This document shows, piece after piece, positions 9,224 to 62,197 of a DNA stretch of 64,000 nt. Source of the DNA: Malacoraja senta (taxonomy: Eukaryota); contig CM075993.1 of the NCBI GenBank assembly GCA_038087875.1, positions 9,302,001 through 9,366,000 on the forward strand, in the 5' to 3' direction. Within the stretch, counting starts at the first letter, position 1. Each line of letters starts with the position of its first letter. The notes beneath the pieces are model-generated. The model was not told where the DNA came from and did no database searches. It saw only the letters and a program-made list of their open reading frames with translations. A program made the position numbers and the translations under genes.

Positions 9224-10607
9224 TGATCTATAAATCTTGGCCCTATATTCAATTCTATGTAACTGACAAATGCCATAGTAGGCAGTGGATCCAATTGTGA
9301 TCTCTGCAAGACCAATGGCAAAGCACACCACTCAAGCCTTCCCTTCATTTTGACCTTAATTTACATGTTCATCAGCATCCTTTGGAGGTATAGATCCAGA
9401 TTTTCAAGTCGTCCTTTTTTACTTATCAATGCATTAGATCCAAATGCGAATTATCACATCTCATCCTTAAAAGACTTGGGTGGAGTCAGAAGGCGAGTCA
9501 AACATTGATGGGATGGGAGGCAATTTGGCCCATAATGTTCATAAAAGCCAATAATGGAGTAACTTAACTTTCTCCCAATTCCTGGCTCTTGGTCGGTTTC
9601 AGTTAACAAATCACATTCTTGCTGAAGTGTGGTGACTTGAACTATACACAGTATTCCGACTATAGATAAACTGTGTTTTATATGTATCTAATTTGCAATT
9701 AACCTTAGCCAATGAAGGCAAGAGCCCTGCATTCTGAACCTCATCTGCCTGTTCTGTTACTTTCAATGATCTACTGACATGCACTCCAGAATCCTTATGC
9801 CCTTCTTAGCATCCTACCATTTATTGCACTAACGAGTAATCATTGCCGGAGGTGAATCACCCAGAATTCAAACAGTTATGGTAGAAGTCTCTGATTAGGC
9901 TTTTAAAAAAAAAATCAATTTTAGCTGGTTCAATTATAGTTATGGACAATGGTAATTAGAAAGTATATTGTTGGATATATGGTGTGGCACTGCCACTGAA
10001 TGTCATAATGAGGTACATACACTCTTACATTTGTAGGGCTCTAAAGTTACTTCCACATATCAGCCTTAGCTTAACTGTTATCCAAGTCTAACTACAAGTC
10101 TTACTTAAGCCCTCCGTTTCTTCCTCCACCAGAAAGGCCTTAAAGCCCTCCGTTTCTTCTTCGACCGCAGAACTAGCAAATCTCCGTCTACGAACACTCT
10201 CCTCCACTAGAGCTTGTCCACACTCTCAACTACTTCTCCTTCAACTCCTCCCACTTCCACCAAATCAATGGCGTAGCCATGGGCACTTGTATGGGTCCCA
10301 GCTATGCCTGCCTCTTTGTAGGGTACGTCGAACAATCCCTGTTCCAGGCGTACACTGGCCCAATCCCCAAAATCTATCTCCGTTACATTGACAACAACAC
10401 TGATGCTACCTCCTGCACCCATCCAGAACTCGTGGACTGCTTTAACTTCACAGCCAATTTCCATCCTGCACTCAAATTCACTTGGACCATCTCCGACACC
10501 TCCCTTCCCTTTTCTTGATCTCACCATGTCCATCACAGGAGATAGACTATCACCTGATGTGTAGGAAAGAACTGCAAATGTTGGTTTAAATCATAGGTAG
10601 ACACATA

Positions 10608-10930
10608 AGACTGAGAAACAAGAATACAACTGTTAAAGACATCAGACAAACCTTAGGCTTACCAAAATCAACTGTTTGGAACATCATCAAGAAGAAAGGG
10701 TGCACTGGTGAGTTTACTAATCGCTAAGGGACTAGTAGGCCAAGGAAGACCTCCACAGCTGATGACAGAATTCTCTCTACAATAAAGAAAAAATCCCCAA
10801 ACACCTGTCCGACAGATCAGAAACACTCTTCAGGAGTCAGGTGTGGATTTGTCAATGACCACTGTCCGCAGAAGACTTCATGAACAGAAATACAGAGGCT
10901 ACACTGCAAGATGCAAACCCCTGGTTAGCC
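10608..10930 (+). mobile_element. Internal fragment of the same Tc1 family (DNA-binding region), no TIRs
   Basis: Colinear with ~18120-18555, and lacks the 100-bp insertion present there. Confidence 0.8.
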
Positions 10931-15106: not shown

Positions 15107-16145
15107 TAGGTATGTTACAATACTTGCCTTCAGCGGCGCTGTAATTCTGTCACTGGCCGTGTGCGCGATTTTGGCGCCTTTAAGGGGGGGCGGGGTTAAA
15201 GCGTGGGTTTCTCCTCCCTTGTCCTGAATTATACTTTGTTGGAGTACCAGCTCTGTGGAAGAAGCGTTCCGAGTGCCGTTTTGCGTAGTTTGTTTTAAAA
15301 ATCTCCCAACAAGTTCAGCGTTGGGAATCATTTTAAAATCATCTTCTGAAGCGTCAACGCCAACAACGGGGACGGATTTCACACAAGGGAAAGGTAAACG
15401 AAAGTGCTTTATTTTAATGTATAAACGTTCTCCTTAAGAGGCCTTTAATTCACATTTTTACATGCGACATGGTGATTTTATTCCCCGAATTAACGGCAGT
15501 ATTTTTCATGCCAATACGGGGTTAAATTCACCGCAAATGAACGTTCCAAAAGATCGCGTTCCAGAAATCCTCACTCGCAAGATGAATTAAATCCCCATTA
15601 ATTTACAGGTATTAAACATTCAATTCCTTCCATTTGGCCTGTAAATTCATGAAAATTAGATTTAAAAATTATGTTATATTGTGAATTATTGTGTGAATGT
15701 TATTTGGACACTTAGGCTATTTAAAAATGTTAATCTATTCTTAAGAAATTGATAGATGTTTAGATCTAGTAATTTAATATTGTAATTAGCTACAATTAGG
15801 TAACTAACTAATTATATGCTTTACTTTCATGTCTTCGAAGTAAGATTGTTTCATATTTGTTTCAATGCTTCAATCTATAATAACTGAAAATTTCTTTCAG
15901 TTATCATAATTTTTAAGAAAGTTATGGGCTTTTAACTGTCCTCGATCACAGCTTTTGTGTTAAGTCAATGGAAAAGCAATAGGGAACTAGATGCTAATTT
16001 CTGAGTATGATAATGGCCATAACTTTTTTAATACTGAAGATATGAAAGTGAATTAAGTGTCAAATTAAACTTCTTTTTATGCTTTATCTGATGGGATAAA
16101 TTGCAGACTTTATTTTTAAAATCTCAAAATTTTGTAACATTGCTA
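15107..16145 (+). mobile_element. Non-autonomous internal-deletion derivative (1039 bp) of the hATw-like transposon
   Basis: Same TIRs. Perfect 7-bp TSD CTATATA at 15100-15106 and 16146-16152. Colinear with 34907-~35580 plus ~38812-39179 of the autonomous copy. Confidence 0.9.
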
Positions 16146-17717: not shown

Positions 17718-19230
17718 CAGTGCTCTCCATAAAGTTTGGGACAAAGACCTATCATTCCTTTATTTGCCTCTGTACTCCACAATTTAAGATTTGGAATATT
17801 AAAAAATCACATGTGGAAAAAGTGCACATTGTCAGATTTTATTAAAGGCCATTTTTATACATTTTGGTTTCACCATGTAGAAATACAATTGTGTTTATAC
17901 ATAGTCCCCCTATTTCAGGGCACCATAATGTTTGGGACACATGGCTTCACAGGTGTTTGTAATTGCTCAGGTGTGTTTAATTGCCTCCTTAATGCAGGTA
18001 TACGAGCTTTTAGCACCTAGTCTTTCCTCCTGTCTTTGCATCACCTTTGGAAACTTTTATTTCTGTTTATCAACATGAGGTCCAAAGTTGTGCCAGTGAA
18101 AGTCAAATAAGCCATTATGAGACTGAGAAACAAGAATAAAACTATTAGAGACATCAGCCAAACCTTTGGCTTACCAAAATCAACTGTTTGGAACATCATT
18201 AAGAAGAAAGAGAGCACTGGCGAGCTTATTAATCGCAAAGGGACTGGCAGGCCAAGGAAGGCCTCAACAGCTGATGACAGAATTCTCTCTATAATAAAGA
18301 AAAAAAACAGACACCTGTCCCACAGATCAGAAACACTCTTCAGCAGTCAGGTGTGGATTTATCATATTTATCTGAAGAAGGGTTTCGGCCTGAAACGTTG
18401 CCTATTTCCTTCGCTCCATAGATGCTGCTGCACCCGCTGAGTTTCTCCAGCATTTTTGTGTACCGTGGATATATCAATGACCACTGTCTGCAGAAGACTT
18501 CATGAACAGAAATACAGAGGCTACACTGCAAGATGCAAACCACTGGTTTGCCGCAAAAATAGGATGGATGGGTTAGAGCTTGCTAAGAAGTACTTAAAAG
18601 AGCAACCACAGTTCTGGAAAAAGGACTTTTGGACAGATGAGACAAAGATTAACGTATATCAGAGTGATGGCAAGAAAAAGGGAAGTAGAAGAGAAGAAAC
18701 AGCCCAAGATCCAAAGCATACCACCTCATCTGTGAAACATAGTGGTGGGGGTGTTATGGCCTGGGCATCTATGGCTGCTGAAGGTACTGGCTCACTTATC
18801 TTCCTTGATGATACAACTGCTGATGGTAGTAGCATAATGAATTCTAAAAGTGTATAGACACATCCCATCTGCTCAAGTTCAAACAAATGCCTCAAAACTC
18901 ATTGGCCGGCGGTTCATTCTACAGCAAGATAATGATCCCAAATATATTGGTAAATCAACAAAGGAGTTTTTCAAAACTAAAAAAAATTCAATTCTTGAGT
19001 GGCCAAGTCAATCACCCAATTTGAACCCAATTGAGCATGCCTTTTATATGCTGAAGAGAAAACTGAAGGGGACTAGTCCCCAAAACAGGCATAAGCTAAA
19101 GATGGCTGCAATACAGGCCTGGCAGAGTATCATCAGAGAAGACACCCAGCAAATGGTGATGTCCATGAATCGCAGACTTTAAGCAGCTATGGCATGCAAA
19201 GGATATGCAACAAAATACTAAACATGACTA
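17718..19230 (+). mobile_element. Tc1-like DD34E transposon, frameshifted, right TIR not found
   Basis: Starts TA|CAGTG, with direct repeats ccataa.gtttgggaca ~200 bp apart (IR/DR type). ORF pieces carry KGTGRPRK, FWTDETK and QQDNDPK...SPNLNPIE, with 34 residues between D and E. Confidence 0.88.
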
Positions 19231-20144: not shown

Positions 20145-21535
20145 TTTTTTTTATTTTTTTTAATTTTTATTTATTAGAAGTACATTACATTACAACCACA
20201 TACATTAGTACTCGTCATTTATATCTTCTTACAATTAATGTACTCCATTTATTTTTTACACTAGAAAAGGAAAAGATTGAAAGAAAGAAGAAAGTGAAGG
20301 AAAAAGTGGAAGTGTAGGAAATGTGACAACAAAAAAGGACGAAGACCCTATAAGAGCAAAATTAAAAACAAAAGAAAAAGAGTTAAGAAATAGACCCTAG
20401 GAAAGAAAGAGAGAGAGAAAGAGGAAAAAGAGAGAAACAAATATTTTTATGAGCATTACGTAAATGGGACATACCAACTCTTCAACTATCATCCCCCCTT
20501 ACCTGACCTCAATTTTTTTTTTTAAGTACTTTTGCACCCTATGTTTGTAATAATTCTATAAATGCAGACCACGTCAGGTGGAAGTGATCTGGTTTACCTG
20601 CTAGGAGGAGTCTTATCTCTTCTAGGTGTAATGTTTCAAACATATTTGAAATCCACATATTTATAGTTGGTATTGGAGCCTTCTTCCAAAATTTTAGAAT
20701 TAGCTTTTTTCCAGTTATTAACCCATAGTCCATTAGTTTCTTTTGAAACACATTTAGTTCTGGACTATCTTCCGTTATACCGAAGATAATCCATTCTGCT
20801 TTGGGTATCAGTCTTGTTTTAAATAACTTTGTAAAGATTTCAAAAATTTCATTCCAAAACTTTTGAATTTTTGTACAGAAAACAAATGAGTGCGCTATAG
20901 TNNNNNNNNNNNNNNNNNNNNNNNNNNNNNNNNNNNNNNNNNNNNNNNNNNNNNNNNNNNNNNNNNNNNNNNNNNNNNNNNNNNNNNNNNNNNNNNNNNN
21001 NNNNNNNNNNNNNNNNNNNNNNNNNNNNNNNNNNNNNNNNNNNNNNNNNNNNNNNNNNNNNNNNNNNNNNNNNNNNNNNNNNNNNNNNNNNNNNNNNNNN
21101 NTATAGTGATTTGAGGTTTTGTAATGTACAGTAATATATCATCCGCGTATAAAGATATTTTATTATATGAATCTTTAGTATTATATCCATGGATATCAGG
21201 GTGTATTCTAATTTTTTCTGCTAGCGGTTCAATAATGAGAGCAAACAGCTGTGGTGATAATGAGCATCCTTGTCTATTTCCCCTTGATAGTTGGAATTTC
21301 GAGGATAATATGTTATTAGTTAGTATTCTAGCTGTAGGTTTGTTATATAGTAACTTGATCCATAGAATAAAATTCTCCCCCAGTTGAATTTTTTGTAATA
21401 CTTTGTCCATATAATTCCATTCTACTTGATCAAATGCTTTTTCAGCATCCAGCGAAATGATTGATAATTCTTGATCTTCAGATTTGTGTGAGTGCATTAT
21501 GTTGAGTAGACGTCTCATATTGTTAGATGAGTATC
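20145..21535 (-). mobile_element. 5'-truncated L1/Tx1-clade LINE spanning an assembly gap
   Basis: IISLDAEKAFD.VEW, RQGC.LSP.LFAL.IEPLA and SLYADD motifs; A-rich tail; perfect 15-bp TSD TCCCCATTGTAATTA at 20130-20144 and 21536-21550. Confidence 0.88.
20902..21101. other. Assembly gap (200 N)
   Basis: Run of exactly 200 N. Confidence 1.
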
Positions 21536-23535
21536 TCCCCATTGTAATTAGACTAGTAAATGGTCCACCCATAAGGTAGAAGTAATCCAGATCTTCCAAC
21601 CTACCTCATCATGGATTTGGATTCTCTTTTTATCTGCACTTCCTCTGTAACTGTAACACTTAAATGGTGTGACACTGTATTTTGCACTCTAGTATTTTTC
21701 TCTATGTACCACCTGTTTTGTGTATGGCTTGATTGTACTCATGCATAGTATGATTTGACTGGACAGCATGCAAACAAAACTTGTTGTTGTATATTGTATA
21801 TGCAACAATAATAAATCAATACTCTCATGCAAGCCATATTCTTAATCACCAGTTTCCCAATAAACTCAATTTCAGTGTCAAGCAAAGATGCAAGCAGCTT
21901 TCTTACTATGATTCTACAGCTCAAATCCAACAATGTACAAGGCAAAGTACATTGTCTAAGGACAAATGGGAAGATGTTCAAACTATATTGTGTAGGAACT
22001 GCAGATGTTGGTTTAAACCGAAGATAGACATAAAATGCTGGAGTAACACAGCCCGTCAGGCAGTATCTCTGGAGAAAAGGAATAGGCACCTAGAGAATCT
22101 CCAGATACTGACTGACCTGTTTTATGACCCCAACCAAGCCAAGTGAGTCTCTACATAGGACGGAACTAGATGCGGGTTTACACCGAAGATAGACATTAAA
22201 TGCTAGAGTAACAGCTGGGGCAGGCAGCATTTCTGGAGAGAAGGAATGGATGACATTTCCGGTCGAAACCCTTCTTCCTATTGAGTGTGGGGGAAAGGGA
22301 AACAAGAGATGTAGACGGTGTTGATCATCACCATCTATATCATTCGGTTCCGTTTCTTCTGACGTTCAATCTATATTGTCTCTACTCCAGAACAAAAGTC
22401 ACCCTAAACTTGGACATTGAGCTGCAGTATACAGGCAAAACTTATATTTTATTTATTTATAGATTCACCTCATTTCTACAAAACAACACAAAGTGCTGAA
22501 ATGACAGTTGATCATGCTGAGTTTTCCACAAAATCTTTACCAATCTACCCACTGTAAAACATTGCCATCTGACAATGGAGGTCCATGGCGAGTCCCTGAT
22601 AGGATGGACCCATTTCCAATGTTCCCTCTAATTTTTAGTAGTTCGTGTGTGCAGAAATCTCGTATTGTGCAATTTTTCATGCGGTTACAATGTGTGTGCG
22701 CACTGAATTCTTGTGCAAATATAAACCTGAATTTGTTTCACAATATTTTTGCCATAGCCTCTCTCATGGCTAATAAAACTGTATTGCAGGGCTCGAAATT
22801 AGCGGTTGCCCGGGTGCCACTGACCACTCAAAGCGCCGACGGGCAACCTAAACAACGAGTCATTTTGCCCGACTTGGCAACCAGATACTGGTTTGTACCA
22901 AAGATAGACACAAAAAAATGGAGTAACTCCGCGGGTCAGGCAGCATCTCTGGAGAAAAGGAACGCGACGTTTCGTGTTGGCGGCGGCTGTGCGGGGCAAA
23001 GATACTAGGTGTGGTGTGAGGAAGGGTCGGAGCGAATGACGGGCCCCGAACAGCGGCAGCAGCAGCTCCATCTCCTCCTGCCCGCCCTGATAAGGGCCGC
23101 TGCTTGCAAACCCGCTAACGGCGATAACCGCTTTCGAAACAAACCCTCCTGCACGCCGAGGCCGGGAGGAGGGAGGGAGGGAGAGGCCTCGGCATGCCGG
23201 AGGGTTTGTTTCGAAAGCGGTTATCTCCGTTAGCGGGTTTGCAAGCAGAGGCCCTAATCAGGGCGGGCGGGGTCGGGGGGCGGGAGGAGGAGCAAATGGA
23301 GCCGCTGCTGCTGCTGCCGCTCTGCGAAGCCCGTCATTCGCTTTGACTCGTCTGAAGCAGCTGCACCAAAGATCTTATAGCTATAGAATCTCTGAGCTGC
23401 ACCGCTCGGCCCCGCACCTTGCTGTTGGCTGGCGGAGGAGGGAGGCGGTGGCGAGGAGTTCCCAACGGCCAAGGCAGCAGGGCGATGTTGTCCGAGGAGC
23501 GCTGATCTTCCTTCCTCCCCACCTCGCCCACCCCC

Positions 23536-25451: not shown

Positions 25452-26617
25452 GTTGCTAGCTGCCTCCGTCTTCAGTCCGGTATCTTTTTGTTTTTTTGTT
25501 ATGTTTGAAGAGCGTTTTTTGTGTTTTTTTTAAAATGTTTTTATGTGGGGAAAGAGGGTACGATAAGGGGGATACCGTCCTTCAGTCACTTCCTTGAGAG
25601 GATGCGACTATTATTCGAGTCGCGTCCTCGCCCCCCCCCCCGCTCAGGCAGCAGCGGAGCAACGTTGGAAACATCGCGGGGCGGGCGATGCCTTACCGGG
25701 GATCGCTGTTTGGAGCTCCGGAGTGCTTGGCCTGCTGCACCGACAGCGCGGTGCTCCCAACGCGGGCGGCGCTGACCAACATCACGGAGTCCTGCGACTC
25801 CACCCGGCTCGGCCTGCGGACTCCGGTGGGAGGTGGCTGTTCTGGAGGTCCAGGCCCTCTCGCCGGGAACGGTGGAACCCCGACGGAGAACATCCTCAGC
25901 GGCCCGGACCTCCAGATCAACCACCTCCCACCGGAGTCCGCAGGCCGAGCCGGGTGGAGTCGCAGGACTCCGCGATGTTGGTCAGCGCCGCCCGCGTTGG
26001 GAGCTCCGGAGTGCTGGGCCTGCTGCACCGACAGCGCGATGCTGTGGTTCGCAGAGCTCCCAACGCGGGCGGCGCTGACCAACATCGCGGAGTCCGGATG
26101 ATCTGGAGGTCCGGGCCGCTGAGGATGTTCTCCGTCGGGGTTCGGCGTCGGGGTTCCACCGTTCCCGGCGAGAGGGCCTGAGCATCGGGCCGCCCGTGGC
26201 GGCTACTGCGGGTGCTTGGGAGGCCCCGACCACGGGTGAACATAGAAACTAGGTACAGGAGTAGGCCCTTCGAGCCTGCACCGACATTAAATATGATCAT
26301 GGCTGATCATCCAACTCAGTATCCTGTACCTGCCTTCTCTCCATACCCCCCTGATCCCTTTAGCCACAAGGGCCACATCTAACTCCCTCTTAAATATAGA
26401 CCAACATCTGGGAAGATCGGCGGGGAGGCTGGCTGGACTATGGTACCTTCCTTAACTTTGGTGCCGCTGTGGGATTATGTTGTGTGTGGACTTCTGTGTT
26501 TGTGCTTTAAAAAAAAATGTTTATTTATTTATTATTTATTTTTATGTTACTTCACTGTAAGGAAAATCCATTTCGTTGTCTCTAGAATTAGATGACAATA
26601 AATTGAATACAACAACA
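25452..26617 (+). repeat. Unclassified GC-rich non-coding SINE-like/non-LTR-derived element, containing a CR1 3'-end insertion at ~26240-26400
   Basis: T-rich 5' part, CpG-rich core and caataaa plus short repeat tail. Similar architecture at ~51560-52459 and ~56495-57140. Confidence 0.5.
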
Positions 26618-30459: not shown

Positions 30460-31807
30460 CAGGAACGTGCTGTGAGTAATTACTCAAGGTAGGCAGTCAG
30501 TCGGCTTTTAAAAAAGAATCTTAAACCGCGCTTGCGCAGATTGTTCTTTCCGTAAAAATTAAAAATAAAAAGAAGTAACAATTCAATTTGCCCAAGGCAT
30601 TAAAAAATCTCCTTAATTTTGAATTACTGTATGGGTGGGCGATGGAGGATGAAGGCAGGTGGAGAGATGGTGGGAAAAACGGGAGCACACCGGGACAAGT
30701 TGAATCAGTTGTGATCTTATTGAATGACAATACTTGTTCAAGGGACCAATTGGAGGGAGAGTTCCTTTTGCAGCGTGTGGGGAGTCTGGCCAGGGGTTAA
30801 AGTTGCGGGGAGGGCAGGAGTGTTGAGAAGGAGGGGGTCGGGGATCATGCCTGTAACTCACTCACCGCTGCCACAGTGCTCCGGGCACAGAGCCACCGCC
30901 GGGACCTCAGCGCTTTCTGCTGGCCCGCTTACCTCTGGCAGTGCTCTCCGTCTGAACATCTCTCACCTGCCGCTCGCCGGCTTCGCTCATGTCAGCCGCT
31001 TCCCGCAAATCCTTAAATTCTGACAGCCGAGTAACCTCAATTGGTCCCTCGATCATGCTGTCGGAATTTAAAATTGGCTGACATGAGCGAGGCTGGCGAG
31101 CAGCAGGAGAGAGGGTTTCAGATGGAGAGCACTGCCAGAGGTGAGCAGGGGCCAGCAGAAGGGGCTGTCCGGCCCCGGCAGCCGTTCGTAGCCACCCGAG
31201 CTAATTCACTCCCCGGCCACAATGCAGTGGCTCCGCGCCCGGAGCGTCGCAAGTGGGTTACTGGCATGATCCCCGATCCCCTCCTTCACAACGCTCCTGC
31301 CCTCCCCACAACTTTACCCCGGGCCAGACTCCCCAAACGCTGTGAAAGGAACTCTCTCTCTCCCTCCCCCCCCCCCCGGAAATATGGTATTTAAAAACAT
31401 ATAACACCTAGCGATTTACCTACCACATTATTGGTGCACGAACTCCATTCTTCTCTCTTTGTTTCCTAAAATACACTTAAGATAATGATAATCCATATTT
31501 GAAAAACCCACCAAGAAACTTGCGCTGCGCATGAGCAGTACTGCAAAGGCAGAATTTCAGCTGCCTTCAGCTCCCCTTGAAATTTACGGCTTGAAGCAGC
31601 GCCGATGGCATGTGGGCTGCACAGACCTTCGCGTGTTGCAAGTACTGTGCATGAAAGGCACGGAGAATGATGCCTACCTAAGAGATTGATCTCTTAGATA
31701 GGCATAATTCTCCCATGCCTTTACTATTTATATTTAATAATTACCATTTTATAATTTTAGTCAGGGTAGGCAGTGCCTACCTTGCCTACCCTGACGGCAC
31801 GCGCCTG
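30460..31807. mobile_element. Non-autonomous TIR element (CAGG...CCTG, hAT-like) inserted in a Rex/Babar 3' end
   Basis: Left caggaacgtgctgt...caaggtaggca pairs with right tgcctaccttg...acggcacgcgcctg. The flanks rejoin as one LINE 3' end. TSD not clear. Confidence 0.55.
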
Positions 31808-32740
31808 CTCATTTCACCATTGCCATCGGGAAGAAGGTGCAGGAGCCTGAAAACTGTAATGTCCAGATTCAGGAACAGCTTCTTCCCTACAGCCAAGCAA
31901 GCAAGAATTTAATTGTCCTATCTGGGACATATGACAATAAAACACTCTTGACTCTCGACTGCCGCCCGACCCCCCTTGGCACCACCCCCAACCCCCCGCT
32001 CCCCGCCCCCCAACGTGGGGCCGATTGATTACCTCCATAAATTCCATAATTTTCCTTGTGGGTGTGATTGACTCCGGGGGCGCCTGTCTCCGGGGTGAGT
32101 GTGGACCTTTGACCTGGGAATGCACAGTCGGAATACCGAACTCACTTATAGATGTTCATAAATTGGAAAAGCATCCAGGATAGTACTGAAAACAACCGAC
32201 TATTCCAGAAGTACTCAAAAGCCCAGACAGCAGAATAATAGCATCACCACCCTAACTAACTACCCACCTGTCAAGTCATGGCATTAAAGTTACAAACAAA
32301 ATACTGGAGTAACTCAGCAGGTCAGGGAGCATCTCTGGAGAAAAGGAATATGTGACATTTCGGATAACCATTCTTGAGACTCAGGCTAAGGCCACCTCCG
32401 GAAAGGGACAGGACACCCTGGAGGGAACAGGGAGGTCCCAGCAGCAACTCAACAACGCCTGCAGCGGTGGAGACCCGGGCTTGACCCCACGCAGCAGCAC
32501 GATCTCGCTCACTCATCTTTATAACTTTAAAAGTCGCATCTTGTCTGTGTGTGCATACGTAGCAATGTTACAACATTTTGAAATTTAAAAAATCAAGTCT
32601 GCAATTTATCCCATCAGATAAAGCATAAAAATAAGTTTAATTTGACCTAATTCACTTTCATATCTTCAGTATTAAAAAAGTTATGGCCATTTTCATACTC
32701 GGAAAATAGCATCTTGTTCCCTATTGCTTTTCCATTGACT

Positions 32741-34383
32741 TTTCCATTACCTGCCCCCTCGACACTGTCCACTCTGCCCTCCTAAAGGACGTCATTACAA
32801 CAGCTGGTCTCAGAATCCTCGCCATCTTCAACAGCTCTCTGGCCACTGGCACTGTACCTACCTGCTTCAAGCATGCGGTGGTCCAACCACTCCTGAAAAA
32901 ACCTAACCTCGACCCCACATTGCCAAGCAACTACAGACCCATTTCTAAACTGCCTTTCCTCTCAAAAGCCCTTGAAAAGGTAATTTTAAGTCAACTTATA
33001 CCTTACCTTCACCAAAACACTATCTTGGAAACTTTCCAATCAGATTTCAGGGCTCACCATAGCACAGAGTCTGCCTTGTTGAAGGTACACAATGACCTAC
33101 TGCTCACCGTTGACTCCGGCGACTGTGCAATTCTGCTCCTTCTTGACCTCAGCGCAGCATTTGATACTGTCGACCACACCATCCTAATTGACCGTCTCCG
33201 GTATGGGGTTGGTATTGATGGCACTGCCCTGAGCTGGTTCATCTCCTACCTCAAAGGTAGGAGTTTCTCGACTAACATAGGCAACTCATTCTCCTCCCTG
33301 GCTAATCTCTGCTGTGTGGTTCCACAAGGTTCCATCCTTGGCCCCATTCTCTTCTCCCTGTATATGCTCCCCTTAGGCCAAGTCATTGAAAGACATGGCA
33401 TTTCCTTCCATTGCTACGCAGACGATACACAACTCTATCTCCCCCTGATGCCCAAAAACCAATCAAATCTGTTTAACCTTACCCACTGCCTCGAGGATAT
33501 AAAGTGTTGGATGGCCCAGAACTTCCTCCAACTAAACGAGAGTAAGTCTGAGGTCATCCTTCTCGGCCCCTCGGACTCAATCAAAATGATAGCAGGCAGC
33601 CTTGGAAGCCTTACCCCACTACTCAAACCTCACGTCAAAAACCTTGGCGTGATATTTGACTCAGCACTGAAATTTGACAAACAAGTCAATGCCGTGGTAA
33701 AAGCTAGCTTCTTTCAGCTTTGGATGATAGCTAAAATAAAACAATTCCTCCAGTTTGATGACCTCGAAAAGATCATCCACACATTCATCTCCTCCCGCCT
33801 AGATTACTGCAACTCCCATTACACTGGCATCAGCCAATCTTCCCTGTCCCACCTGCAACTGGTCCAAAACGCCGCAGCGAGACTCCTGACGGGCACCCGA
33901 AAAAGGGACATCACCCCGATCCTGGCCTCTCTCCACTGGCTCCCTGTGCGGTTCCGTATAAACTTCAAGATCCCCCTCCATGTCTACAAAGCCCTCAATG
34001 GGCTTGCCCCCACCTACATAAAGAGTCTTCTCACCCACCACTCCACCTCCAGGCCCCTCAGATCGGCCGACTTGGGGTTGCTGAATATCCCACGGTCTAG
34101 GCATAAGCTCAGGGGCGACCGCGCCTTTGCGGTTGCAGCTCCTAGACTGTGGAACAGCATCCCCTTTCCCATCAGAACTGCCCCCTCCATCGACTCTTTT
34201 AAGTCAAGACTAAAGACTTATCTATACTCCCAAGCCTTTCCTGCCGTCCTCTGAGTGAGGGCTACATGTATATATGTATGTAGTTTGTTTTGTTGTGCTA
34301 TTCTTATAACAAATGTAAAGCATTTTGGCCAACGAGAGTTGTTTTTTAAATGTGCTATATAAATAAATGTGACGACTTGACTT
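32741..34383 (+). mobile_element. 5'-truncated L2-clade LINE; RT/C-terminal ORF open to 34254; (GACTT)n tail
   Basis: ORF 32878-34254 carries YRPISKLPFLSK, LLDLSAAFDTVDH, PQGSILGP, YADDTQLY and LHWLPV motifs. The 3' UTR ends aataaatgtgacgacttgactt. Confidence 0.9.
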
Positions 34384-34906
34384 AACTCAAAAGCTGTGAT
34401 CGAGGACTGTCAAAAGCCCATAACTTTCATTAAAAATTAAGAGAACTGAATGAAATTTTCAGTTATTATAGATTGAAGCATTCTGAAACAAATATGAAAC
34501 AATCTTACTTGGATTACCTGAAATTAAAGCATATAATTAGTTAGTTACCTAATTGTAGCTAATTACAAAATTCAATTACTAGATCGAAACATCTATCAAT
34601 TTCTTAAGAAAAGATTAACATTTTTAAATAGCCTGTGTCCAAATAAACATTCACACGAGAATTCACAATATAACATGATTTTTAAATCTCATTGTCATGA
34701 ATTTATAGGCCAAATGGAAGGAATTTAGTGTTTAATTCCCATAAATTAATCGCCATTTAAATCATCTTGCGAGTGGGATTTTGTGGAACGGGACCGATTG
34801 GAACGTTGCATTTGCGGTGAATTTAAACCCCATATCGGCAGGAAAAATACTGCCGGTTCGTATATTTACATAGTCACCTTTTCGCAACGTAAAATTTTGA
34901 TTAAAG

Positions 34907-37900
34907 TAGGTATGTTACAAAACTTACCTTCAGTCGCGCTGTAATTCTGCCACTGGCCGTGTGCGCGATTTTGCCGCCTTTAAGGGGGGGGCGGGGTTAA
35001 AACGCGGTTTCTCCTTCCTTGTGCTGAATTATATTTTGTTGGAGTACCAGCCTCGGTGAAAGAATCGTTCCGGGTGCCGTTTTGCGTAGTTTGTTTAAAA
35101 AATCTCCCAACAAGTTCAGCGTTGGAATCATTTTAAAATCATCTTCTGAAGCGTCAACGCCAACAACGGGGACGGATTTCACACAAGGGAAAGGTAAACG
35201 AATGTGCCCTATTTTAATGTATAAACGTTCTGCTTAAGAGGCCTTTAATTCACTTTTTTTCATGCGACACGGTGATTTTTCCCCCCGAATTAACGGCAGT
35301 ATTTTTCATGCCAATACGGGGTTAAATTCACCGCAAATGAACGTTCCAAATAATCGCGTTCCAGAAATCCCCATTCGCAAGATGATATAAATTCCCATTA
35401 ATTTACAGGTATTAAACATTCAATTCCTTCCATTTGGCCTGTAAATTCATGAAAATTAGATTTAAAAATTATGTTATATTGTGAATTATTGTGTGAATGT
35501 TATTTGGACACTTAAGCTTTTTAAAAATGTTAAACTATTCTTAAATAAATGGATAGATGTTTAAATCTAGTAATTGAATTTAGATGAAACTGATGATTTT
35601 CTTGTTGAGTATTTACTATTTGTTTTAGCATTTAACTTTATCATTTCTACCTTTTTTTCTAAAGCTGCAAATAATAACTTGTTTCTGTTAATGATGTTCA
35701 GTGTTTTTTTTAAAATTTACATTGTAAATAGATGTCTCCAAAGAAGAAATGCAAAATTGTCAATCCAAAAGCCCAGGCAGGCATAGCTAGAGTTCAACTT
35801 GAAGAGAAGTTCTCTGTCATGCCTGAGTCTAAGAGGGATCTTAAAAATGGACACATCTTGTACTTGTATACCTCGTTTGGAAAAAGTCTGCCTGAAACAG
35901 AGAAATCGCTGAGTTCACATTTCTCTTTGTCGGATGCAGAAGGCTATTCATTTGTTACTGTTAAGTTAAAAGTGAAGACTCTCGTTAACCGGACTTTGCT
36001 TGAGTTTAAAAAACTCACCAATCCCAAGGAACTTGGAGTATTTATGGAAATTTGTGATGAAACTTTTAAACTTCCGGAAGGCAGTCAACACATTTCTTTA
36101 GATGACATTCCACTGCCTGGTGCTCAAGATCCTGAATCCTTGACATCTGCCGAAAGCCAAGTGCCCATATTTCAAGACACTGAGGACATGGGCGATGACA
36201 GTCATAGTCTGCATCCTCCACTGAATCTAGCAATGCCAACGACACCTGCTGCCTCACCTGATCCAATGCCATCGACATCTAGTGTTTCAAAAAGATGTAC
36301 CAGAGAATTTCTAAGTCTTTCACCAGGGAAACAAAAATTGACGAAAAGACTAAAGTATATGTACGAATCCAGGGCTGCTCTTTCAACAAAGTATCACACA
36401 AAGATCAGTGAACTTAGGGCACGGTTGAAAACTCCCAAACGTATAGTTAATCAAGCCTTAAAGAGAAAGCAAAACCAAATAGATTTAAAGGACAGAAAGA
36501 TTCAGGAACTCAAAACCAAATTACGTGATAATACTTCTGCACGAGTGCTTGCTAACACCAAGGCAGAGTTTTTGAAACTTAAAAAAGCACACAGACAATT
36601 GCTGATGTTTCGTGGCAGTACGAAAAGGAGGAAAACTGTTTCAATTCACCAGTACAGAAAAGTTCATGAAAATTTAAAGGACAGGGAAGAGGATGTGAGA
36701 CGCCTCGAATTTGACAATCTTGTCCTCAAAGAAACAATCGAAAATCTGCAGGCTGCCAGTATTGTCAAGGCAAAGGTGGGCCAGAAAACCTATTCCTCAA
36801 CAATAAGGATGCATGTGTTTGACAGTATTGTAAACAAAACTCCCACAGCAAACATTCCAATCCTGCTAAGCCAGTTCTACAAGCGGAGTGGACTTCATCT
36901 GGATTATGTTCCTCGACGCAGTGCAGTTGAAGTTATGGCCCAAGAATTGGGAGCTATTGCTGAGTTGCAAACAGCAGAGATGCTCCTTGCAACAAGCGGT
37001 TTGACTGTTGGGTTTGATGCAACCACCCAGGAAGAGACCCACATTAACAGTGTTCATTTCACCACCACAAACAACTGTCTCTCTGCAGCAGTTGATGAAT
37101 TGGCTGGTGGGACTGCTGAGGACTATGCACAACATATTTGCGAAACAATTGACAATTTGTGTAAAACTTACATTTATTTTAATGAGCAAACAAATTTTCA
37201 AGATACAAGACAAAAGATAATCGACAACATTTCAAACACAATGAGTGACAGGTGTGCAGCTAATCATGCTGCTATTAGAATTGTGAGTAGTGAGTGGGGT
37301 AAATATTTGAACGAGCTCTACTGCCACTTGCATCCTCTTGACTCCATTGCTACATCAGTTCGCTCAGCCCTAAAAATGCAGAAACAATCCGGAGGACAAT
37401 TCTTATTTGGGAAAGACTGTCTAGCAGTAAATGCCATACTGCAGATGAGCAAACTTAGATACAAAAACGGAAAAGGGGACCCAAAAGGATTTGTCGCATT
37501 TTTAGATGACAGGAACATCCCCCGAGGTGTCCTCCCACGGTACCGTGGCAACAGATTGCACATACTGTTTCATATTAGTGGCAAGCTGATAGAATATTAT
37601 GATGACTTTGTTGCACTGCTGAATAGCGGAACATCCTGTGGGGGGTTGAAAAGCGCCATCCTCCATGACTTCACCCAGGCTGAAGCAAAAGTAGAACTTC
37701 AGATATTGGGCTTACTTGGCAAATATCTGACTGGGCCTTGGATGAAACGCTTCTACACTTCAAGCCAGAATCAGATCAACCATGTTGATGGCATCAAAGT
37801 GGTTAAAGGGGTGATTGCTGCTCTAAAGGAAGCCACAGAAAATCCAGAGAACATCATATTGGCAAGGGAAGATTTCTTCGGTGAGGAGGTACATCTTGAC

Positions 37901-39179
37901 GCCACATTGAAAAAACTTTGGGAGCTACCAATACATCCACAGTTCAGTTCAAAGATGAGGAGCTGTCTTCAAGCTGTCATCACTGTGTTGGAGAGGCAAT
38001 ATAGTAAATACTTTGAACTTGATGTTACTGAGAAACTGAAGGAGGAGACTGCATCAGCAAGATCACACAACATTGATGCGGAGGAGATAATGGGGATGTT
38101 TAGCTCATCGAAACAGAAATCTCCCAATGCCACCATGTGTTATTTGTCATGTAGGATGCGGGCCTGCAAGAATAGAACAGTCAATTACCTTGATAATCTC
38201 GAGGAGCATCGTAGGGAGGAGGTGCTCTGTAAGGCAATGAAATTGGGGAGAGTGCAGAGGAACAGACGGAAGAAAAAACAGAAGGAATTGAGAGCAGAAA
38301 TCATCAAGCGACAGAAAGGCAAGGAGCATGCTCGGGACACGAAAGAGAGGAAAAAAATAGAAAAAAAATTGAAAGAGACTGATTTAAACAGCATTCGCAG
38401 AGATTATCCAAATTTGGACTACTCCAAATGTGATGATCTACAGGACATACTTAATGGGAAAGTAGTGGGCAGAAAGGCATGTCATGTGTGGTTTGAAGAG
38501 CAAAAACCTGTAGTTTACAATGCCAAAATTGAAAAGTTGAGGAAAAACAAGGTGTACAGAGTTGCTTATTGGTTGCAATCTGACGAGTATGATGATGCTA
38601 CTGATTTTGATATGCCAATGTACCAGCTAGCAGCTGATCTTCTCCTTAAAGATTTGGTCTTTTGCTAGAAATTGTAAATTAATTACCTATCTGTTACGGA
38701 CTTACAGCATATAATACAATAATATTAAAGTTCTGATCTTGAGAATATCACATTTTTGAATTTTCAAAGCAGTCTGGGTGTTTATTACTATTTCCGTCAC
38801 ATCGGTCAATTTTGTAATTAGCTACAATTAAGTAACTAACTAATTATATGCTGCAATTTCAGGTCATCCAAGTAAGATTATTTTATATTTGTTTCAGAAT
38901 GCTTCAATCTATAATAACTGAAAATTTCATTCAGTTCTCTTAATTTTTAAGAAAGTTATGGGCTTTTGACTGTCCTCGATCACAGCTTTTGAGACAAGTC
39001 AATGGAAAGGCAATAGGGAACAAGATGCTAATTTCCGAGTATGAAAATGGCCATAACTTTTTTAATACTGAAGATATCAAAGTGAATTAGGTGTCAAATT
39101 AAACTTCTTGTAATGCTTTATCTGATGGGATAAATTACAGACTTGATTTTTAAAATCTCAAAATTTTGTAACATTGCTA
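34907..39179 (+). mobile_element. Autonomous hAT-superfamily DNA transposon with 7-bp TSD (hATw-like), 4273 bp, apparently intact
   Basis: Imperfect TIRs TAGGTATGTTACAAAA ... TTTTGTAACATTGCTA. Perfect TSD ATTAAAG at 34900-34906 and 39180-39186. One long transposase ORF. A 7-bp TSD is, as I recall, the hATw group property. Confidence 0.88.
35732..38668 (+). CDS. 978-aa DDE transposase (hAT/hATw-like) with N-terminal NLS-like PKKKCK, a coiled-coil-like region and a candidate C-terminal Spin/Ssty Tudor-like domain
   Basis: Uninterrupted ORF between the TIRs. Candidate catalytic residues are D429 (VGFDATT), D506 (TMSDRCA) and E784 (NIDAEEIMG), with C531xxH534 (LYCHLH) and RGNR near residue 605 where other hATs have RW. 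Confidence 0.85.
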   Translation: MSPKKKCKIVNPKAQAGIARVQLEEKFSVMPESKRDLKNGHILYLYTSFGKSLPETEKSLSSHFSLSDAEGYSFVTVKLKVKTLVNRTLLEFKKLTNPKELGVFMEICDETFKLPEGSQHISLDDIPLPGAQDPESLTSAESQVPIFQDTEDMGDDSHSLHPPLNLAMPTTPAASPDPMPSTSSVSKRCTREFLSLSPGKQKLTKRLKYMYESRAALSTKYHTKISELRARLKTPKRIVNQALKRKQNQIDLKDRKIQELKTKLRDNTSARVLANTKAEFLKLKKAHRQLLMFRGSTKRRKTVSIHQYRKVHENLKDREEDVRRLEFDNLVLKETIENLQAASIVKAKVGQKTYSSTIRMHVFDSIVNKTPTANIPILLSQFYKRSGLHLDYVPRRSAVEVMAQELGAIAELQTAEMLLATSGLTVGFDATTQEETHINSVHFTTTNNCLSAAVDELAGGTAEDYAQHICETIDNLCKTYIYFNEQTNFQDTRQKIIDNISNTMSDRCAANHAAIRIVSSEWGKYLNELYCHLHPLDSIATSVRSALKMQKQSGGQFLFGKDCLAVNAILQMSKLRYKNGKGDPKGFVAFLDDRNIPRGVLPRYRGNRLHILFHISGKLIEYYDDFVALLNSGTSCGGLKSAILHDFTQAEAKVELQILGLLGKYLTGPWMKRFYTSSQNQINHVDGIKVVKGVIAALKEATENPENIILAREDFFGEEVHLDATLKKLWELPIHPQFSSKMRSCLQAVITVLERQYSKYFELDVTEKLKEETASARSHNIDAEEIMGMFSSSKQKSPNATMCYLSCRMRACKNRTVNYLDNLEEHRREEVLCKAMKLGRVQRNRRKKKQKELRAEIIKRQKGKEHARDTKERKKIEKKLKETDLNSIRRDYPNLDYSKCDDLQDILNGKVVGRKACHVWFEEQKPVVYNAKIEKLRKNKVYRVAYWLQSDEYDDATDFDMPMYQLAADLLLKDLVFC

Positions 39180-39596
39180 ATTAAAGGCATCCTAAGAAGC
39201 AAGTTTATATATAAAATAAACGGCTTTCTTTTACCTGTCCCGTGCGTGAAATCCGTCCACGTTGTCGGCTTTAGAAGATGCTTTTTAATTTACTCCAGCA
39301 ATTAAATTATCCAGTGCAGTTTAAAATAAATTTAATAAAACCGATGTCAAAGCGATTTTTCTTCAGCGCCTAAACAGCCTGTTCAAAATCGATTTGAATA
39401 GGCTGGAGAAATACCGCATTTTAAACCCGCCCCCCCCTCTCAAAGGCGCCAAAGTCGTGCACACGGGCAGTGACAGAACTGCAGCGCCGCTGAAGGTAAG
39501 TTTTGTAACATACCTAGTATATGTGTGTGTCTTTATATTTTCGCCAAAATGCTATGTGGTAACGATCAATTTTTATATACTGACTCTCAAAAGGAG

Positions 39597-41945
39597 ATTA
39601 AAAAGGCAATGCTATAGTGGTCATGCGAGATTTCAATATGCAGGTAGACTGGGAAAATAAGGTTGGTACTGGACCTCAAGAAAGGGAAATTGTAGAGTGC
39701 CTCCGAGATGGATTCTTAGAGCAGTGTGTACTGGAGCCTACCAGGGAAAAGGCAATTCTGGATTTAGTGTTATGCAATGAACCTGATTTGATATGGAAAC
39801 TCAAGGTAAAGGAACCATTAGGAGATAGTGACCAGGATATGATAAGTTTTACTCTGCAATTTGAGAGGGAGAAGGTGAAATCAGATGTGTCGGTATTGCA
39901 GCTGAGCGAAGGAAACTACAGAGGCCGGGGGTGTCGGTGAAACAGGAATTTCTGGGAATAATTCGGAAGATGCAGGCTCTTTTCATTCCAAAGAGGAAGA
40001 GATTCTAGGGGGAGAAAGAGGCGACCGTGGCTGACAAGGGAAGTCAAGGACAATACAAAACTAAAAGAGAAGGCGAATAACATAGCAAAGATTAGTAGAA
40101 AGCCAGTGGATTGGGAAGCTTTTAAAGATCAACAGAAGGTAACTAAAAAGGCAATACGGGGAGAAAAGATGAAATGCGAAGGTAAGCTAGCCAATAATAT
40201 AAAAGAGGATAGCAAGAGTTTCTTCAGTTATATAAAGAGTAAGAAAGAGGCAAGAGTGGAAGTTGGACCGCTGGAGAATGCTACAGGAGAAGTGATAATG
40301 GGGAATAAAGAAATGGTAGAGGAGCTCAATAATTTTTTTACATCAGTCTTCACAGTGGAAGACACCAGCAACGTGTCTGAAATTCAAGAGAGTCAGGGGG
40401 GTGCAAGTTAGTGGAGTGGCTATAATAAGAGAGAAGGTACTTGGGAAGCTGGAAGGGCTGAAGATGGATAAGTCACTGGACCAGGGTTCTGAAAGTGGCT
40501 TTAGAGATTGTGGAGGCATTAAAAGTGATATTTCAAGAATCACTAGACAGGACTAGTGCCAGATGATTGGAAAATTGCCAATATTACCCCGCTGCACAAG
40601 AAGGGAACAAAGCAGAATAGTGGGAACTATAGGCTGTCTTCGGTGGTTGGTAAGATTTTGGAGTCCATTATTATAAAGGATGAGGTTACGGAGTATGGGG
40701 GCTCTTTCTGGTTGGCTGCCAGTGACTAGCGGAGTTCCACAGGGGTTGCTGCTGGGGCCATTATTCTTCACGCTATATATTCGTAATTTGGACGAGAGGA
40801 TTGAAGGCTTAGTGGCTAAGTTTGCGGATGATACAAAAATAGGTGGAAGCGCAGGTAGTGTAGAGAAAGCATGGACTCTGCAGATGGAATATAGTGTAGC
40901 AAAGTGTGGAGTCATGCATTTTAGTAGTAGGAATAAAGGCGTAGACTATTTTCTAAATGGGTAAAGAATCCAGAAATCGGAGGTGCAAAGGGACTTGGGA
41001 ATGCTGGTGCAGGATTGCCAAAAAGTTAATCTGCAAGTCGAATCGGAGGTAAAGAAACTCAATGCTAGCATTTATTTCAAGAGGGCTTGCATACAAAAAT
41101 AGGGATGTATTGCTGAGGCTCTATAAGGCGCAGGTAAGGCCACATTTGGAATATTGTGAGCAATTTTGGGTACCATATATGATGAAGGATGTGCTTGCTG
41201 GCTCTGGAGGGATCCCAGAGGAGGTTTACGAGAATGATCCCAGAAATGAGCGGGTTAACCTATGATGAACGTTTGTCGGCACTGAGCCTGTGCTTGCTGG
41301 AGTTTAGAAGAATGAGGGGGTACCTCATTGAAACATACAGAATAGTGAAATGCTTCGATAGAGTGGATGTGAAGAGGATGTTTCCACTTGAGGGAGAGTC
41401 TAGGATTAAAGGTCATAGAAGTCATACATTGACTTCTCCAATTTCCGGTAGCCCTTGCTATCTCCTCCCCTTCTCAGCTCCTTTTTTCTTCCCCCCCCCC
41501 CCCCCCTCCCCCAACCTGCATCAGTCTGAAGAAGGGTTTCGGCCCGAAACGTTGCCTATTTCCTTCGCTCTAGATGCTGCCGCACCCGCTGAGTTTCTCC
41601 AGCACTTTTGTCTACCTTCAATTGTCCAGCATCTGCAGTACTTTCTTGAACAACTAAAGATCATGGCCTCAGAATTAAAGGATGTTCTTTTAGGAAGGAG
41701 ATGAGGAGTAATCTTTAGTCAGAGGGTGGTGAATCTGTGGATTCTTTGCCACAGATGGCTGTGGAGGCCAAGTCAGTGGATACTTTTAAGGGTGAGATAG
41801 ATTCTTGATTATTACAGGTGTCAGAGGTTATGGTGAGAAGACAGGAGAATTGGGTTAGGAGGGAGAGATAGATTAGCCATGATTGAATGGCAGAGTAGAC
41901 TTGATGTGCAGAATGGCCTAATTCTACAATCACATGACCTTATGA
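39597..41945 (+). mobile_element. Degenerate CR1-clade LINE (endonuclease to 3' end, internal deletions, pLTR insertion ~41425-41650)
   Basis: DFN..VDW, ILDLVLCNE, SGVPQG.LLGP, KFADDTK and RPHLEYC.QFW motifs in frameshifted ORFs. Confidence 0.88.
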
Positions 41946-55949: not shown

Positions 55950-56045
55950 CTCTTTCACATTGTGCTCCTGTAAATCCATATGTACATGCACAACGATTGG
56001 GAGCGACGCATCTTCCGTTATTCAAACAACCTTTCTCACAGGTAG
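55950..56045 (-). CDS. FBN1: Next fibrillin-1 coding exon, EGF-like domain: (P)[31 protein letters not shown](D)
   Basis: 96-nt phase 1-1 exon with acceptor atttttcAG and donor GTAGAG, splicing in frame with the 60357-60452 exon. [15 protein letters not shown] fits recalled FBN1 better than FBN2 (CQN..RCIGPNRCACVY). Confidence 0.93.
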
Positions 56046-60356: not shown

Positions 60357-60452
60357 GCTGTCCACAGTGTGTCCCAATAAACCCCTTCTGACAAATACAA
60401 TGATCCTCAGCACAAGAGCCACCGTTCATGCATCTAATGTTGCACTGCTGGA
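60357..60452 (-). CDS. FBN1: Fibrillin-1 internal coding exon, EGF-like domain: (x)[31 protein letters not shown](P)
   Basis: Hand translation of the minus strand gives a 96-nt phase 1-1 exon with acceptor ...ttttattacAG and donor GTGAGT. The peptide matches recalled FBN1 [33 protein letters not shown]. Confidence 0.93.
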
Positions 60453-60948: not shown

Positions 60949-61434
60949 GTCAAGTCAAGTCACATTTATTTATATAGCACATTTAAAAAACAACTCTCGT
61001 TGGCCAAAGTGCTTTACATTTGTTATAAGAATAGCACAACAAAACAAACTACATACATATATACATATAGCCCTCACTCAGAGGACGTCAGGAAAGGCTT
61101 GGGAGTATAGATAAGTCTTTAGTCTTGACTTAAAAGAGTCGATGGAGGGGGCAGTTCTGATGGGAAAGGGGATGCTGTTCCATAGTCTAGGAGCTGCAAC
61201 CGCAAAGGCGCGGTCGCCCCTGAGCTTATGCCTAGACCGTGGGATATTCAGCAACCCCAAGTCGGCCGATCTGAGGGGCCTGGAGGTGGAGTGGTGGGTG
61301 AGAAGACTTTTTATGTAGGTGGGGGCAAGCCCATTGAGGGCTTTGTAGACATGGAGGAGGATCTTGAAGTTTATACGGAACCGCACAGGGAGCCAGTGGA
61401 GAGAGGCCAGGATCGGGGTGATGTGGTCCCTTTT
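60949..61434 (-). mobile_element. Short 3' fragment of the same L2 family
   Basis: Near-identical reverse complement of ~33900-34383 with a (GACTT)n tail. Confidence 0.9.
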
Positions 61435-62197
61435 TTGAAGAAAGGGAATGCTCAAAGAAATCCCATTGCCAGATGGCATCAGCTTTCTCACAAGGAGGTA
61501 GTGGTATCACTAAATAGCAATCAAGATCTTAATTAAAAGGAGCAGTGAAAAATAACAAACTTTCAACTTTGGTTAATATTTCAGCAATTCTTACTAAGTG
61601 GCCAGAGAGCGGCTTTGAAAAATACTCTGAAGATGCTGTTGACTAACTTCTTGTAACCTAGCCGAGGAACAAATACTGCAACCACAGGAAGAAAGGTGGA
61701 TTGGAGATGGAAATCCAGCAGGTCAAAAATATGAGGATTTATTAGGGAAAAAGTTGGATGTGGATAGCATATATTAAAGTCTATCTATCCTAAGGTTATG
61801 AAACAAACAAACAGCAGACAGTGGAGACTCACTTGGCGTAAATGCAGATTTAATCTGCTTCGCCAAATTCCAACTGACATGTTCCTGCCAAAAAAACACA
61901 TTTTCCTACATCAGTGCATTCCTCCTCTGTTACGCTGCAGCAAAAAAAGTCATTTCTTGGGTTCAAAAGAAGTACTGTTTATGTAAACATAAGTGTTCCC
62001 AACATAACCATAGGAAATAATTTTTTTAATGAAATTTGCACATCACACAATTTCCTGTTTAGAAAATGATAAAATCACTAGTTTGTTCGATTACTTAAAC
62101 TTAACGAAAATAATACTTACATTGTTAGCAATGCACATTATATACTACAATATACAAAATATTGGCAATATTCACCAAAACTGAATACAAGATTCAG

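Follow-up and report, generated by a model that had tools for sequence, protein, structure and literature searches.

The stretch of the Malacoraja senta genome analysed here, 64,000 nucleotides of contig CM075993.1 (assembly GCA_038087875.1, positions 9,302,001 to 9,366,000 of the forward strand; below, the window, whose own numbering is used throughout), contains a full-length DNA transposon of 4,273 bp at 34907-39179. Comparison of its ends placed the 16-bp terminal inverted repeats (TIRs) at 34907..34922 (+ strand) and 39164..39179 (- strand). They are TAGGTATGTTACAAAA and TAGCAATGTTACAAAA, agreeing at 14 of 16 positions, and the element ends read TAGGTAT and TAGCAAT. The element is flanked by a target site duplication (TSD), ATTAAAG, at 34900..34906 and 39180..39186 (both +), the right copy matching the left exactly. 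The duplication is exact at 7 bp and an 8-bp reading fails; by calculation, this 7-mer would recur by chance at a fixed site with a probability of about 1.8e-4. The open reading frame (ORF) of the transposase, 978 residues long, runs from 35732 to 38668 (+) with neither stop nor frameshift. The first-pass annotation had described paired TIRs, a perfect 7-bp TSD and an open 2.9-kb ORF, and this description is confirmed in each part. Between the 5' TIR and the ORF lies a subterminal region (34923..35731, +), CpG-rich in its first part and AT-rich in its second, with an observed/expected CpG ratio of 1.22 versus 0.50 for the window. Immediately 5' of the transposase ATG, after the AT-rich stretch, an acceptor-like TAAATAG is found (35722-35734). 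Since its AG abuts the ATG, the 5' untranslated region could possibly hold an intron. An Rfam scan of 32400-39700 gave no match.

Two non-autonomous relatives of the element are present in the window. The whole window contains six TIR-like sites with at most three mismatches to either TIR, and all six are ends of these three family members. Relative B (15107..16145, +) is a 1,039-bp derivative with an exact TSD, CTATATA, and differs from the autonomous element by 6-7%. Relative C (32560..39516, -) is a deletion derivative of about 1,036 bp net. It is interrupted twice, by an L2-like long interspersed nuclear element (LINE) and by the autonomous element itself, which is nested in it in opposite orientation about 330 bp from its 5' end, so that the left ATTAAAG belongs to relative C. 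Compared with the autonomous element, relative C diverges by 5-6% at its own 3' end and by 11-17% at the 5' end. Its own TSD, at 32553-32559 and 39517-39523, is degenerate (GCATACG/GTATATG, five of seven letters agreeing). The earlier statement that all three insertions have 7-bp TSDs thus holds for the length in 3/3 cases, and for the letters only loosely in relative C. Both relatives carry one common deletion junction (35579/38808) with short microhomology, yet over the first 344 bases their 5' arms differ by about 20%; given these two observations, B or C may be a recombinant between subfamilies. The head-to-head insertion has also created long imperfect inverted repeats, 34568-34855 with 35294-35581 and 34907-35250 with 39179-39516. 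A transcript spanning them could form double-stranded RNA, and the outer ends of relative C together with those of the element could define alternative excision units.

The AlphaFold model of the transposase has a mean predicted local distance difference test (pLDDT) score of 84. It begins with a helical domain (residues 18-108; 35783..36055, +), delimited by the model and by conservation, that may bind DNA. A disordered linker leads to a predicted coiled coil (residues 198-340; 36323..36751, +), whose sequence matches are to coiled coils only and which may serve oligomerisation. The central part (residues 395-820; 36914..38191, +) is an RNase H-like core with a helical insertion and the DDE triad D429, D506 and E784, a feature of hAT transposases. 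A CxxH following the second aspartate is a further feature of the hAT superfamily and is present as C531 and H534. In an alignment of 64 rows these residues are conserved at 98% (D429), 100% (D506, C531 and H534) and 96% (E784), and the copy studied here has them all. Full-length relatives of the protein are 46-64% identical to it. Hermes occupies all 12 rows of the Foldseek search with E≤0.001. In structural comparison the Hermes chain 8edg reaches Z 17.2 (rmsd 3.9, 335 residues aligned, covering Hermes residues 143-609), followed by ISCth4 with 10.0 and the P element with 8.3. Likeness to Hermes and the hAT elements (PDB 8edg, 6dwz, 4d1q, 8sjd and 2bw3) extends beyond the core and the CxxH to the short imperfect TIRs, the single transposase and the non-autonomous deletion derivatives. 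The identification of an autonomous-type DNA transposon with a hAT fold is upheld.

Differences from Hermes are also clear. The TSD is 7 bp rather than the usual 8 bp, which fits exceptional hAT subgroups only, a long coiled coil and a Tudor-like barrel are added, and the BED zinc finger is absent, as is any match to PF05699, the hAT dimerisation domain. Hermes has an R-W motif; at its place, mapped by eye, R608-L609-H610 appears here. No conserved Cys/His cluster was found within residues 1-400 of the 64-row alignment, where the model is helical. By comparison, hATx-6 is described with an N-terminal BED zinc finger (PMC8721813; this and the other papers below are cited for their accessible parts). 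Several results weigh against a hAT assignment. Neither the ORF nor its 64 aligned relatives match a Pfam hAT or other transposase family, the ORF having no Pfam match at all; PF05699 is missed in all 64 members, though the structural match extends to Hermes residue 609; a sequence profile run against the PDB gave no Hermes among its best 60 rows; and identity to Hermes is 10-12%. In Repbase, a hAT element is recognised by convergence with hAT transposases in an iterated profile search (PMC4455052). The results above could mean that, within the hAT/MULE/P clan, the element forms a separate lineage at superfamily level and is not part of hAT. The 978-residue length, the domain architecture of its own and the 1,842 relatives retrieved by phmmer would suit such a lineage, as would the 7-bp TSD and the lack of BED finger and Pfam family. 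On the other hand, Hermes leads the next transposase by 7 Z units and is aligned over residues 143-609, and hAT subgroups with 5-, 6- and 7-bp TSDs have been described (PMC12730594), so we hold a separate superfamily to be improbable. By its modelled structure, the element is instead an autonomous-type DNA transposon of a divergent hAT-fold lineage, one that would work as a hAT element does and departs from the usual pattern in its TSD and in lacking the BED finger.

Which known hAT group stands closest is less clear. The hATw group makes 7-bp TSDs, a trait not met with in the literature searched, and this trait and the range of the group in aquatic invertebrates make up its likeness to the element. 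The label has been used for elements of Hydra, Caligus, Branchiostoma and Lymnaea (PMC12905397, PMC13465017, PMC7878743, PMC6128900), and relatives of our transposase occur in Hydra vulgaris and Caligus rogercresseyi. Membership in hATw is a lead only. The ends of hATm elements start with TAGG as here (PMC6004678), but that group is defined by TAGGGTG termini and 8-9-bp TSDs and carries PF05699, in contrast to the TAGGTAT / TAGCAAT ends and the 7-bp TSD of our element. Fungal hAT7 also has 7-bp TSDs, but it is fungal and clusters with Ac/Tam3-type families (PMC12730594).

The more unusual part of the protein is its C-terminus, which the first-pass annotation had overlooked together with the nesting in relative C. 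A long helix (residues 825-882) is followed by a Tudor or Spin/Ssty-like barrel (residues 893-978; 38408..38665, +), a candidate methyl-histone reader by its model, structural matches and conservation. Predicted alone, the barrel has a pLDDT of 92.8. It matches Spindlin-4 with Z 7.0 (rmsd 2.0, 62/86 residues aligned) and the RDM15 Tudor domain with Z 6.9 (rmsd 1.8, 57 aligned), followed by TraI domains (6.1-6.2), BAHCC1 (6.0) and the TnsB barrel (4.9). Spindlin chains occupy most of its Foldseek list, at E 0.017 and above. In a profile alignment, residues W920, Y929 and Y946 fall on W, W and Y in repeat 1 of Spindlin-4 with spacings of 10 and 19, and the three positions are 98-100% aromatic in the 64 rows. 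The same spacings separate W62/W72/Y91 and F141/W151/Y170 in the Spindlin1 pockets (PMC3967050). A fourth position of the aromatic cage could be Y953 (69% aromatic) or F959 (88%). D969 (98%) and D974 (92%), matched by eye, have the spacing of D184 and D189, the pair with which Spindlin1 holds R2 and the N-terminus of H3 (PMC3967050). The barrel thus resembles the Spin/Ssty repeats of Spindlin (PMC3967050) and the RDM15 and BAHCC1 Tudor domains in fold. With Spindlin it also has in common the H-x-W start, the aromatics at three pocket positions and the C-terminal D-x4-D pair, and unlike Spindlin it is a single repeat carried by a transposase, at 14-18% identity. The module is found in 113 of 114 relatives with at least 120 residues after the catalytic glutamate region (from 298 proteins), including a fragment from the teleost Zoarces, a count that is partly circular as the relatives were found using the whole protein.

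The kinship with Spindlin should be weighed against several observations. A Z of 7 is in the middling range of the comparison tool, and the top Foldseek match of the barrel is an unrelated bacterial protein (E 0.016). A profile of 24 barrel sequences reaches Spindlin-4 at E 1.4, third of three and behind two unrelated matches, and the Pfam Spin-Ssty family (PF02513) is absent from 24/24 members at E≤1. An Atlas match of 0.80 is a lead only. Searched by sequence against the PDB, the barrel alone gave nothing meaningful, and among longer proteins its profile found 12 matches, none with a Pfam family. C-terminal domains of integrases are SH3-like modules for DNA binding or oligomerisation, and the barrel could be a generic module of this kind rather than a histone reader. 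The TraI score lies within 1 Z of that of Spindlin, the TnsB barrel also appears among the matches and one edge of the barrel is lysine-rich, which together with the lack of a significant Spin/Ssty sequence match makes such a module a serious contender, a little short of even. It accounts less well for the dominance of Spindlin chains in the Foldseek list, for near-invariant aromatic residues at the pocket positions and for the aspartate pair with its Spindlin1 spacing. We consider the prediction that the barrel reads methylated histone tails to be evenly balanced. Other transposable elements with readers are known, namely chromodomain Gypsy elements, the Tudor-bearing Gypsy-10_Ec32, termed in 2025 the first transposable element reported with a Tudor domain (PMC12477816), and hAT-chromodomain fusions in sponge (bioRxiv 10.1101/2021.11.30.470311). 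In these the reader is fused to the integrating enzyme and insertion steering has been proposed, as far as the accessible texts go. Here, by contrast, the reader would be Spindlin-like, borne by a DNA transposase and retained throughout a lineage that spans cnidarians to fish, not confined to one species. Full-text literature searches, covering mainly openly accessible papers, returned no DNA transposase with a Spindlin-like domain.

Sequencing runs were used to follow the family beyond the assembly. Among 24 listed runs, 23 contain words of the stretch. The word share is 0.65-0.69 in organism A and 0.31-0.34 in organisms B to H over 15 DNA-type rows, equal to about 1.2-1.4% and 3.4-3.7% divergence, respectively. 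None of the runs with such words is listed as RNA, and presumed-RNA runs (six with a word share of 0.15-0.20 and one with 0.02) lay outside the set compared in detail. Contigs of four of the 24 runs were compared with the stretch, X1 and X2 (organism A), X5 (organism D) and X15 (organism H). Flank pieces of 203 and 169 bases from X2 show zero differences at a depth of about 31, so organism A is the host species or very close to it. In all four runs, contigs join 34899 to 39180 and skip 4,280 bases, i.e. 4,273 + 7, the seven letters fitting either side. These contigs are uninterrupted paralogous copies of the C family that carry one ATTAAAG, and not an orthologous empty site. They therefore fix the duplication length at 7 bp, and being paralogues they are uninformative on polymorphism at the locus of the element; among the contig pieces listed, none crosses a junction specific to this locus. 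The internal deletions 35627->38715 and 35776->38372 are identical in all four runs and three organisms (A, D and H), which indicates that the family and some of its derivatives are older than the split of these organisms. In D and H, long individual pieces of the family diverge by 7.5-14%. At 35339 the listed depth counts are 3.5e5 and 9.1e5 in A versus 210 and 103 in D and H, a difference that suggests, as a lead only, that derivatives were amplified later on in the host lineage; these counts are truncated, and at 35055 the depth is low in organism A too.

The autonomous copy is about 0.7-1.2% away from the dominant family sequence. The four dominant ORF contigs listed for X1 (depth 296-332) differ from it at 9 of 1,227 bases (0.7%), two of them at 0 bases over 173 and 307 bases. 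Rough scaling of depth gives about 76 near-identical copies in X1 and 199-371 from summed X2 depth, read as a family of tens to a few hundred copies, with the reservation that depth is no true copy number. A domesticated single-copy host gene, which the long intact frame might suggest, is largely refuted and its probability practically nil: both TIRs, the exact TSD, the nesting in another transposon, the multicopy depth and the neutral pattern of substitutions led us to reject it. The first-pass interpretation is upheld in that the family is multicopy, its divergence is low (about 1%) and the copy is not domesticated.

To what extent the copy is young is a separate matter. By the thresholds chosen, 11 ORF changes are specific to it, 8 non-synonymous and 3 synonymous, the expectation under neutrality being 74.6% non-synonymous and P(>=8) being 0.018 if the ratio of non-synonymous to synonymous rates (dN/dS) were 0.2. 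The other 21 ORF differences, variable in A or between A and D/H, are neutral-like as well (15 non-synonymous to 6 synonymous). Several of the copy-specific changes, including E91, L379 and Q404, depart from the wider consensus; none hits a catalytic residue. By these counts the copy's own substitutions look neutral. This is qualified by the size of the sample, 32 ORF rows among the 40 difference rows listed of 458, and by the contigs dropping rare variants. In addition, a toy model gives a chance of 1.4-8% for an open frame at 0.7-1.2% neutral divergence. Such low odds point rather to a more recent copy or to a source lineage that is still under selection, and are not decisive, given the many copies and a scan that favours intact ones. 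The reading of the copy as a very recent insertion, possibly still polymorphic, by an element active today would account for the open frame, the exact TSD, the complete set of catalytic residues, the two difference-free contigs and the lineage-specific amplification suggested by the depth at 35339. It fits poorly with at least 11 copy-specific substitutions at a neutral ratio, some of them off-consensus, with relatives B and C being 5-7% from the element at the 3' end and with a family common to other organisms, and we regard it as unlikely. The earlier proposal of recent or ongoing activity is weakened, as the substitutions look neutral and the family and its deletions are found in two further organisms; 'young' holds in part only, for the multicopy state and the low divergence.

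Named relatives of the transposase include, among invertebrates, sea urchin, chiton, limpet, snails, annelids, crinoid, sea spider, copepod and Hydra, in agreement with the earlier view that the lineage is mainly one of aquatic invertebrates. The suggestion, also made earlier, that such elements are rare in vertebrates is weakened by recorded relatives in four teleosts (Aldrovandia affinis, Anabarilius grahami, Leuciscus chuanchicus and Zoarces viviparus) and in Leucoraja erinacea. The nearest named relative is a Leucoraja erinacea fragment, 75% identical over 321 aligned N-terminal residues, as suits a skate-like host. In XP_055521174.1 of the same species, annotated as 'tigger transposable element-derived protein 6-like', a Tigger transposase is joined to the N-terminal third of the family transposase; this is probably a gene model over nested elements and not a real fusion. 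The closest full-core relatives, at 73-74% identity, come from records without a host name. A core tree of 21 rows, drawn from 120 and made up of all 12 named rows plus 9 unnamed ones, puts the element together with chiton, copepod and unnamed rows in a clade with 99/98 support, apart from the cyprinids. Vertebrate monophyly is rejected in the core by the approximately unbiased test (p-AU 6.35e-5, 3 rows vs 9). In the N-terminal tree of 35 rows, the element groups with Leucoraja, Aldrovandia and one unnamed row, with 97 in the Shimodaira-Hasegawa-like approximate likelihood ratio test (SH-aLRT). Path lengths in this tree are 0.35 to Leucoraja and 0.53 to Aldrovandia, and the disordered linker is 62% identical to that of Aldrovandia versus 28-34% in named invertebrates.

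Both trees fit horizontal movement among marine animals without proving it, few sequences being named. Alternatively, the family could date back to early jawed vertebrates and have come down by vertical descent through old paralogues, some of them lost, so that no transfer is needed. The union of the element with Leucoraja and Aldrovandia in the N-terminal tree would be expected in that case, ancient paralogy can also cause the rejection of vertebrate monophyly, and the missing host names of the nearest full-core relatives leave room for it. However, vertical descent has to accommodate a core that sides with chiton and copepod, apart from the cyprinids, as well as an Aldrovandia path that is short, and a linker identity that is high, for a skate-teleost split, and it appears rather unlikely to us. 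We lean towards a horizontal entry into the host's ancestor; the transfer proposed in the first-pass annotation thus gains from the rejected monophyly and is tempered by the few named sequences and by possible ancient paralogy. As to a vehicle, a search for a viral carrier gave 62 pattern matches, none confirmed. Two distant relatives, L001 (59% protein identity) and L009 (36%; 128-4335), keep the terminal motif TAGGTATGT, and the 3' end of L001 (2881-2896) matches the 5' TIR of the element at 16/16 positions. L009 has both TAGGTATGT ends in flanks without a 7- or 8-bp duplication, and L001 has one end only. Screening 30 of 62 metagenome loci for paired ends with a duplication gave none convincing. 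With no readable TSD in these relatives, 7 bp is established for the family of the window element only.

The host gene around the element appears to be a fibrillin. Pfam scans of 391 stop-to-stop frames of at least 45 residues, filtered for low complexity, and matches to fibrillin point to two fibrillin-type EGF exons of 96 bp on the minus strand, at 55950..56045 (matching fibrillin-1 chain 5ms9 with E 8e-14) and 60357..60452 (Pfam scan and fibrillin match). A motif search for the next exon gave none within the 64-kb window. From these two exons, with no other in the window, we infer that the element sits antisense in a long fibrillin intron; downstream of them, a single intron seems to take up the remaining 56 kb or so of the window. 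The intronic location given earlier is supported to this extent by the exons, the placement itself being deduced and the next exon not found in the window. The L2-like LINE inside relative C (32742..34382, +, approximate boundaries) is 5'-truncated, 1.6 kb long and contains a 514-residue stop-free reverse transcriptase frame. A second partial copy at 60950-61435 (-) is 98.8% identical, and from these two features this LINE family would also be young. The autonomous element is then not the sole young one in the window, at variance with the claim that nearly every other transposable element here is degraded. The LINE has a short tandem 3' tail and entered relative C at TTGACTT, which matches its own tail. 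Elsewhere in the window we noted broken pieces of Tc1-like transposons at 10605-10793 and 18117-19179 (HTH_Tnp_Tc3_2, DDE_3) and degraded LINE pieces with endonuclease and reverse transcriptase matches at 39602-41262, 6484-6774 and 20895-21572, the last adjoining a 200-N gap. Hairpin-like inverted repeats with arms of 87-108 bp (86-95%) at 25749-26008, 23077-23271 and 30794-31320 are probably miniature inverted-repeat transposable elements from other families.

Taken together, the element is real, intact and moderately young. It is a member of a divergent lineage of the hAT fold that makes 7-bp TSDs and carries a Spindlin-like domain throughout. We judge it probable that it is a full-length copy of a multicopy cut-and-paste transposon of this lineage with the following mechanism and history. 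The helical N-terminal domain, without a BED finger, would bind the TIRs and subterminal DNA, and the coiled coil would oligomerise the transposase. Hermes excision uses hairpin chemistry, and by its fold the enzyme would excise in the same way, after which the ends would be joined to target DNA 7 bp apart. The long helix would carry the Spindlin-like barrel, which may bind a methylated histone tail close to the target site and so bias where insertion occurs, a step that we find neither probable nor improbable. The family would have arrived in an ancestor that the host shares with its relatives, been inherited and then been amplified again in the host lineage. The present copy would have landed in an older non-autonomous relative within the fibrillin intron and drifted neutrally by about 1% while its frame was kept. 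That it still encodes an active enzyme is doubtful. The fullest version of this view, a widespread hAT-fold lineage with an insertion-steering Spindlin-type reader together with an intact, transposition-competent vertebrate member and its 1-kb donor after a horizontal marine entry, seems unlikely as a whole.

In a fish, an intact hAT-type element would alone be no surprise; it is the architecture of the transposase that is unusual. If the barrel reads histone marks, the enzyme would be a natural chromatin-guided cut-and-paste transposase, with a bearing on target choice and on vector design. Since the locus supplies both a vertebrate ORF without breaks and a natural donor to match, this could be tested without reconstruction. 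For the host, the element would constitute a datable case of transposon entry into a slowly evolving cartilaginous fish.

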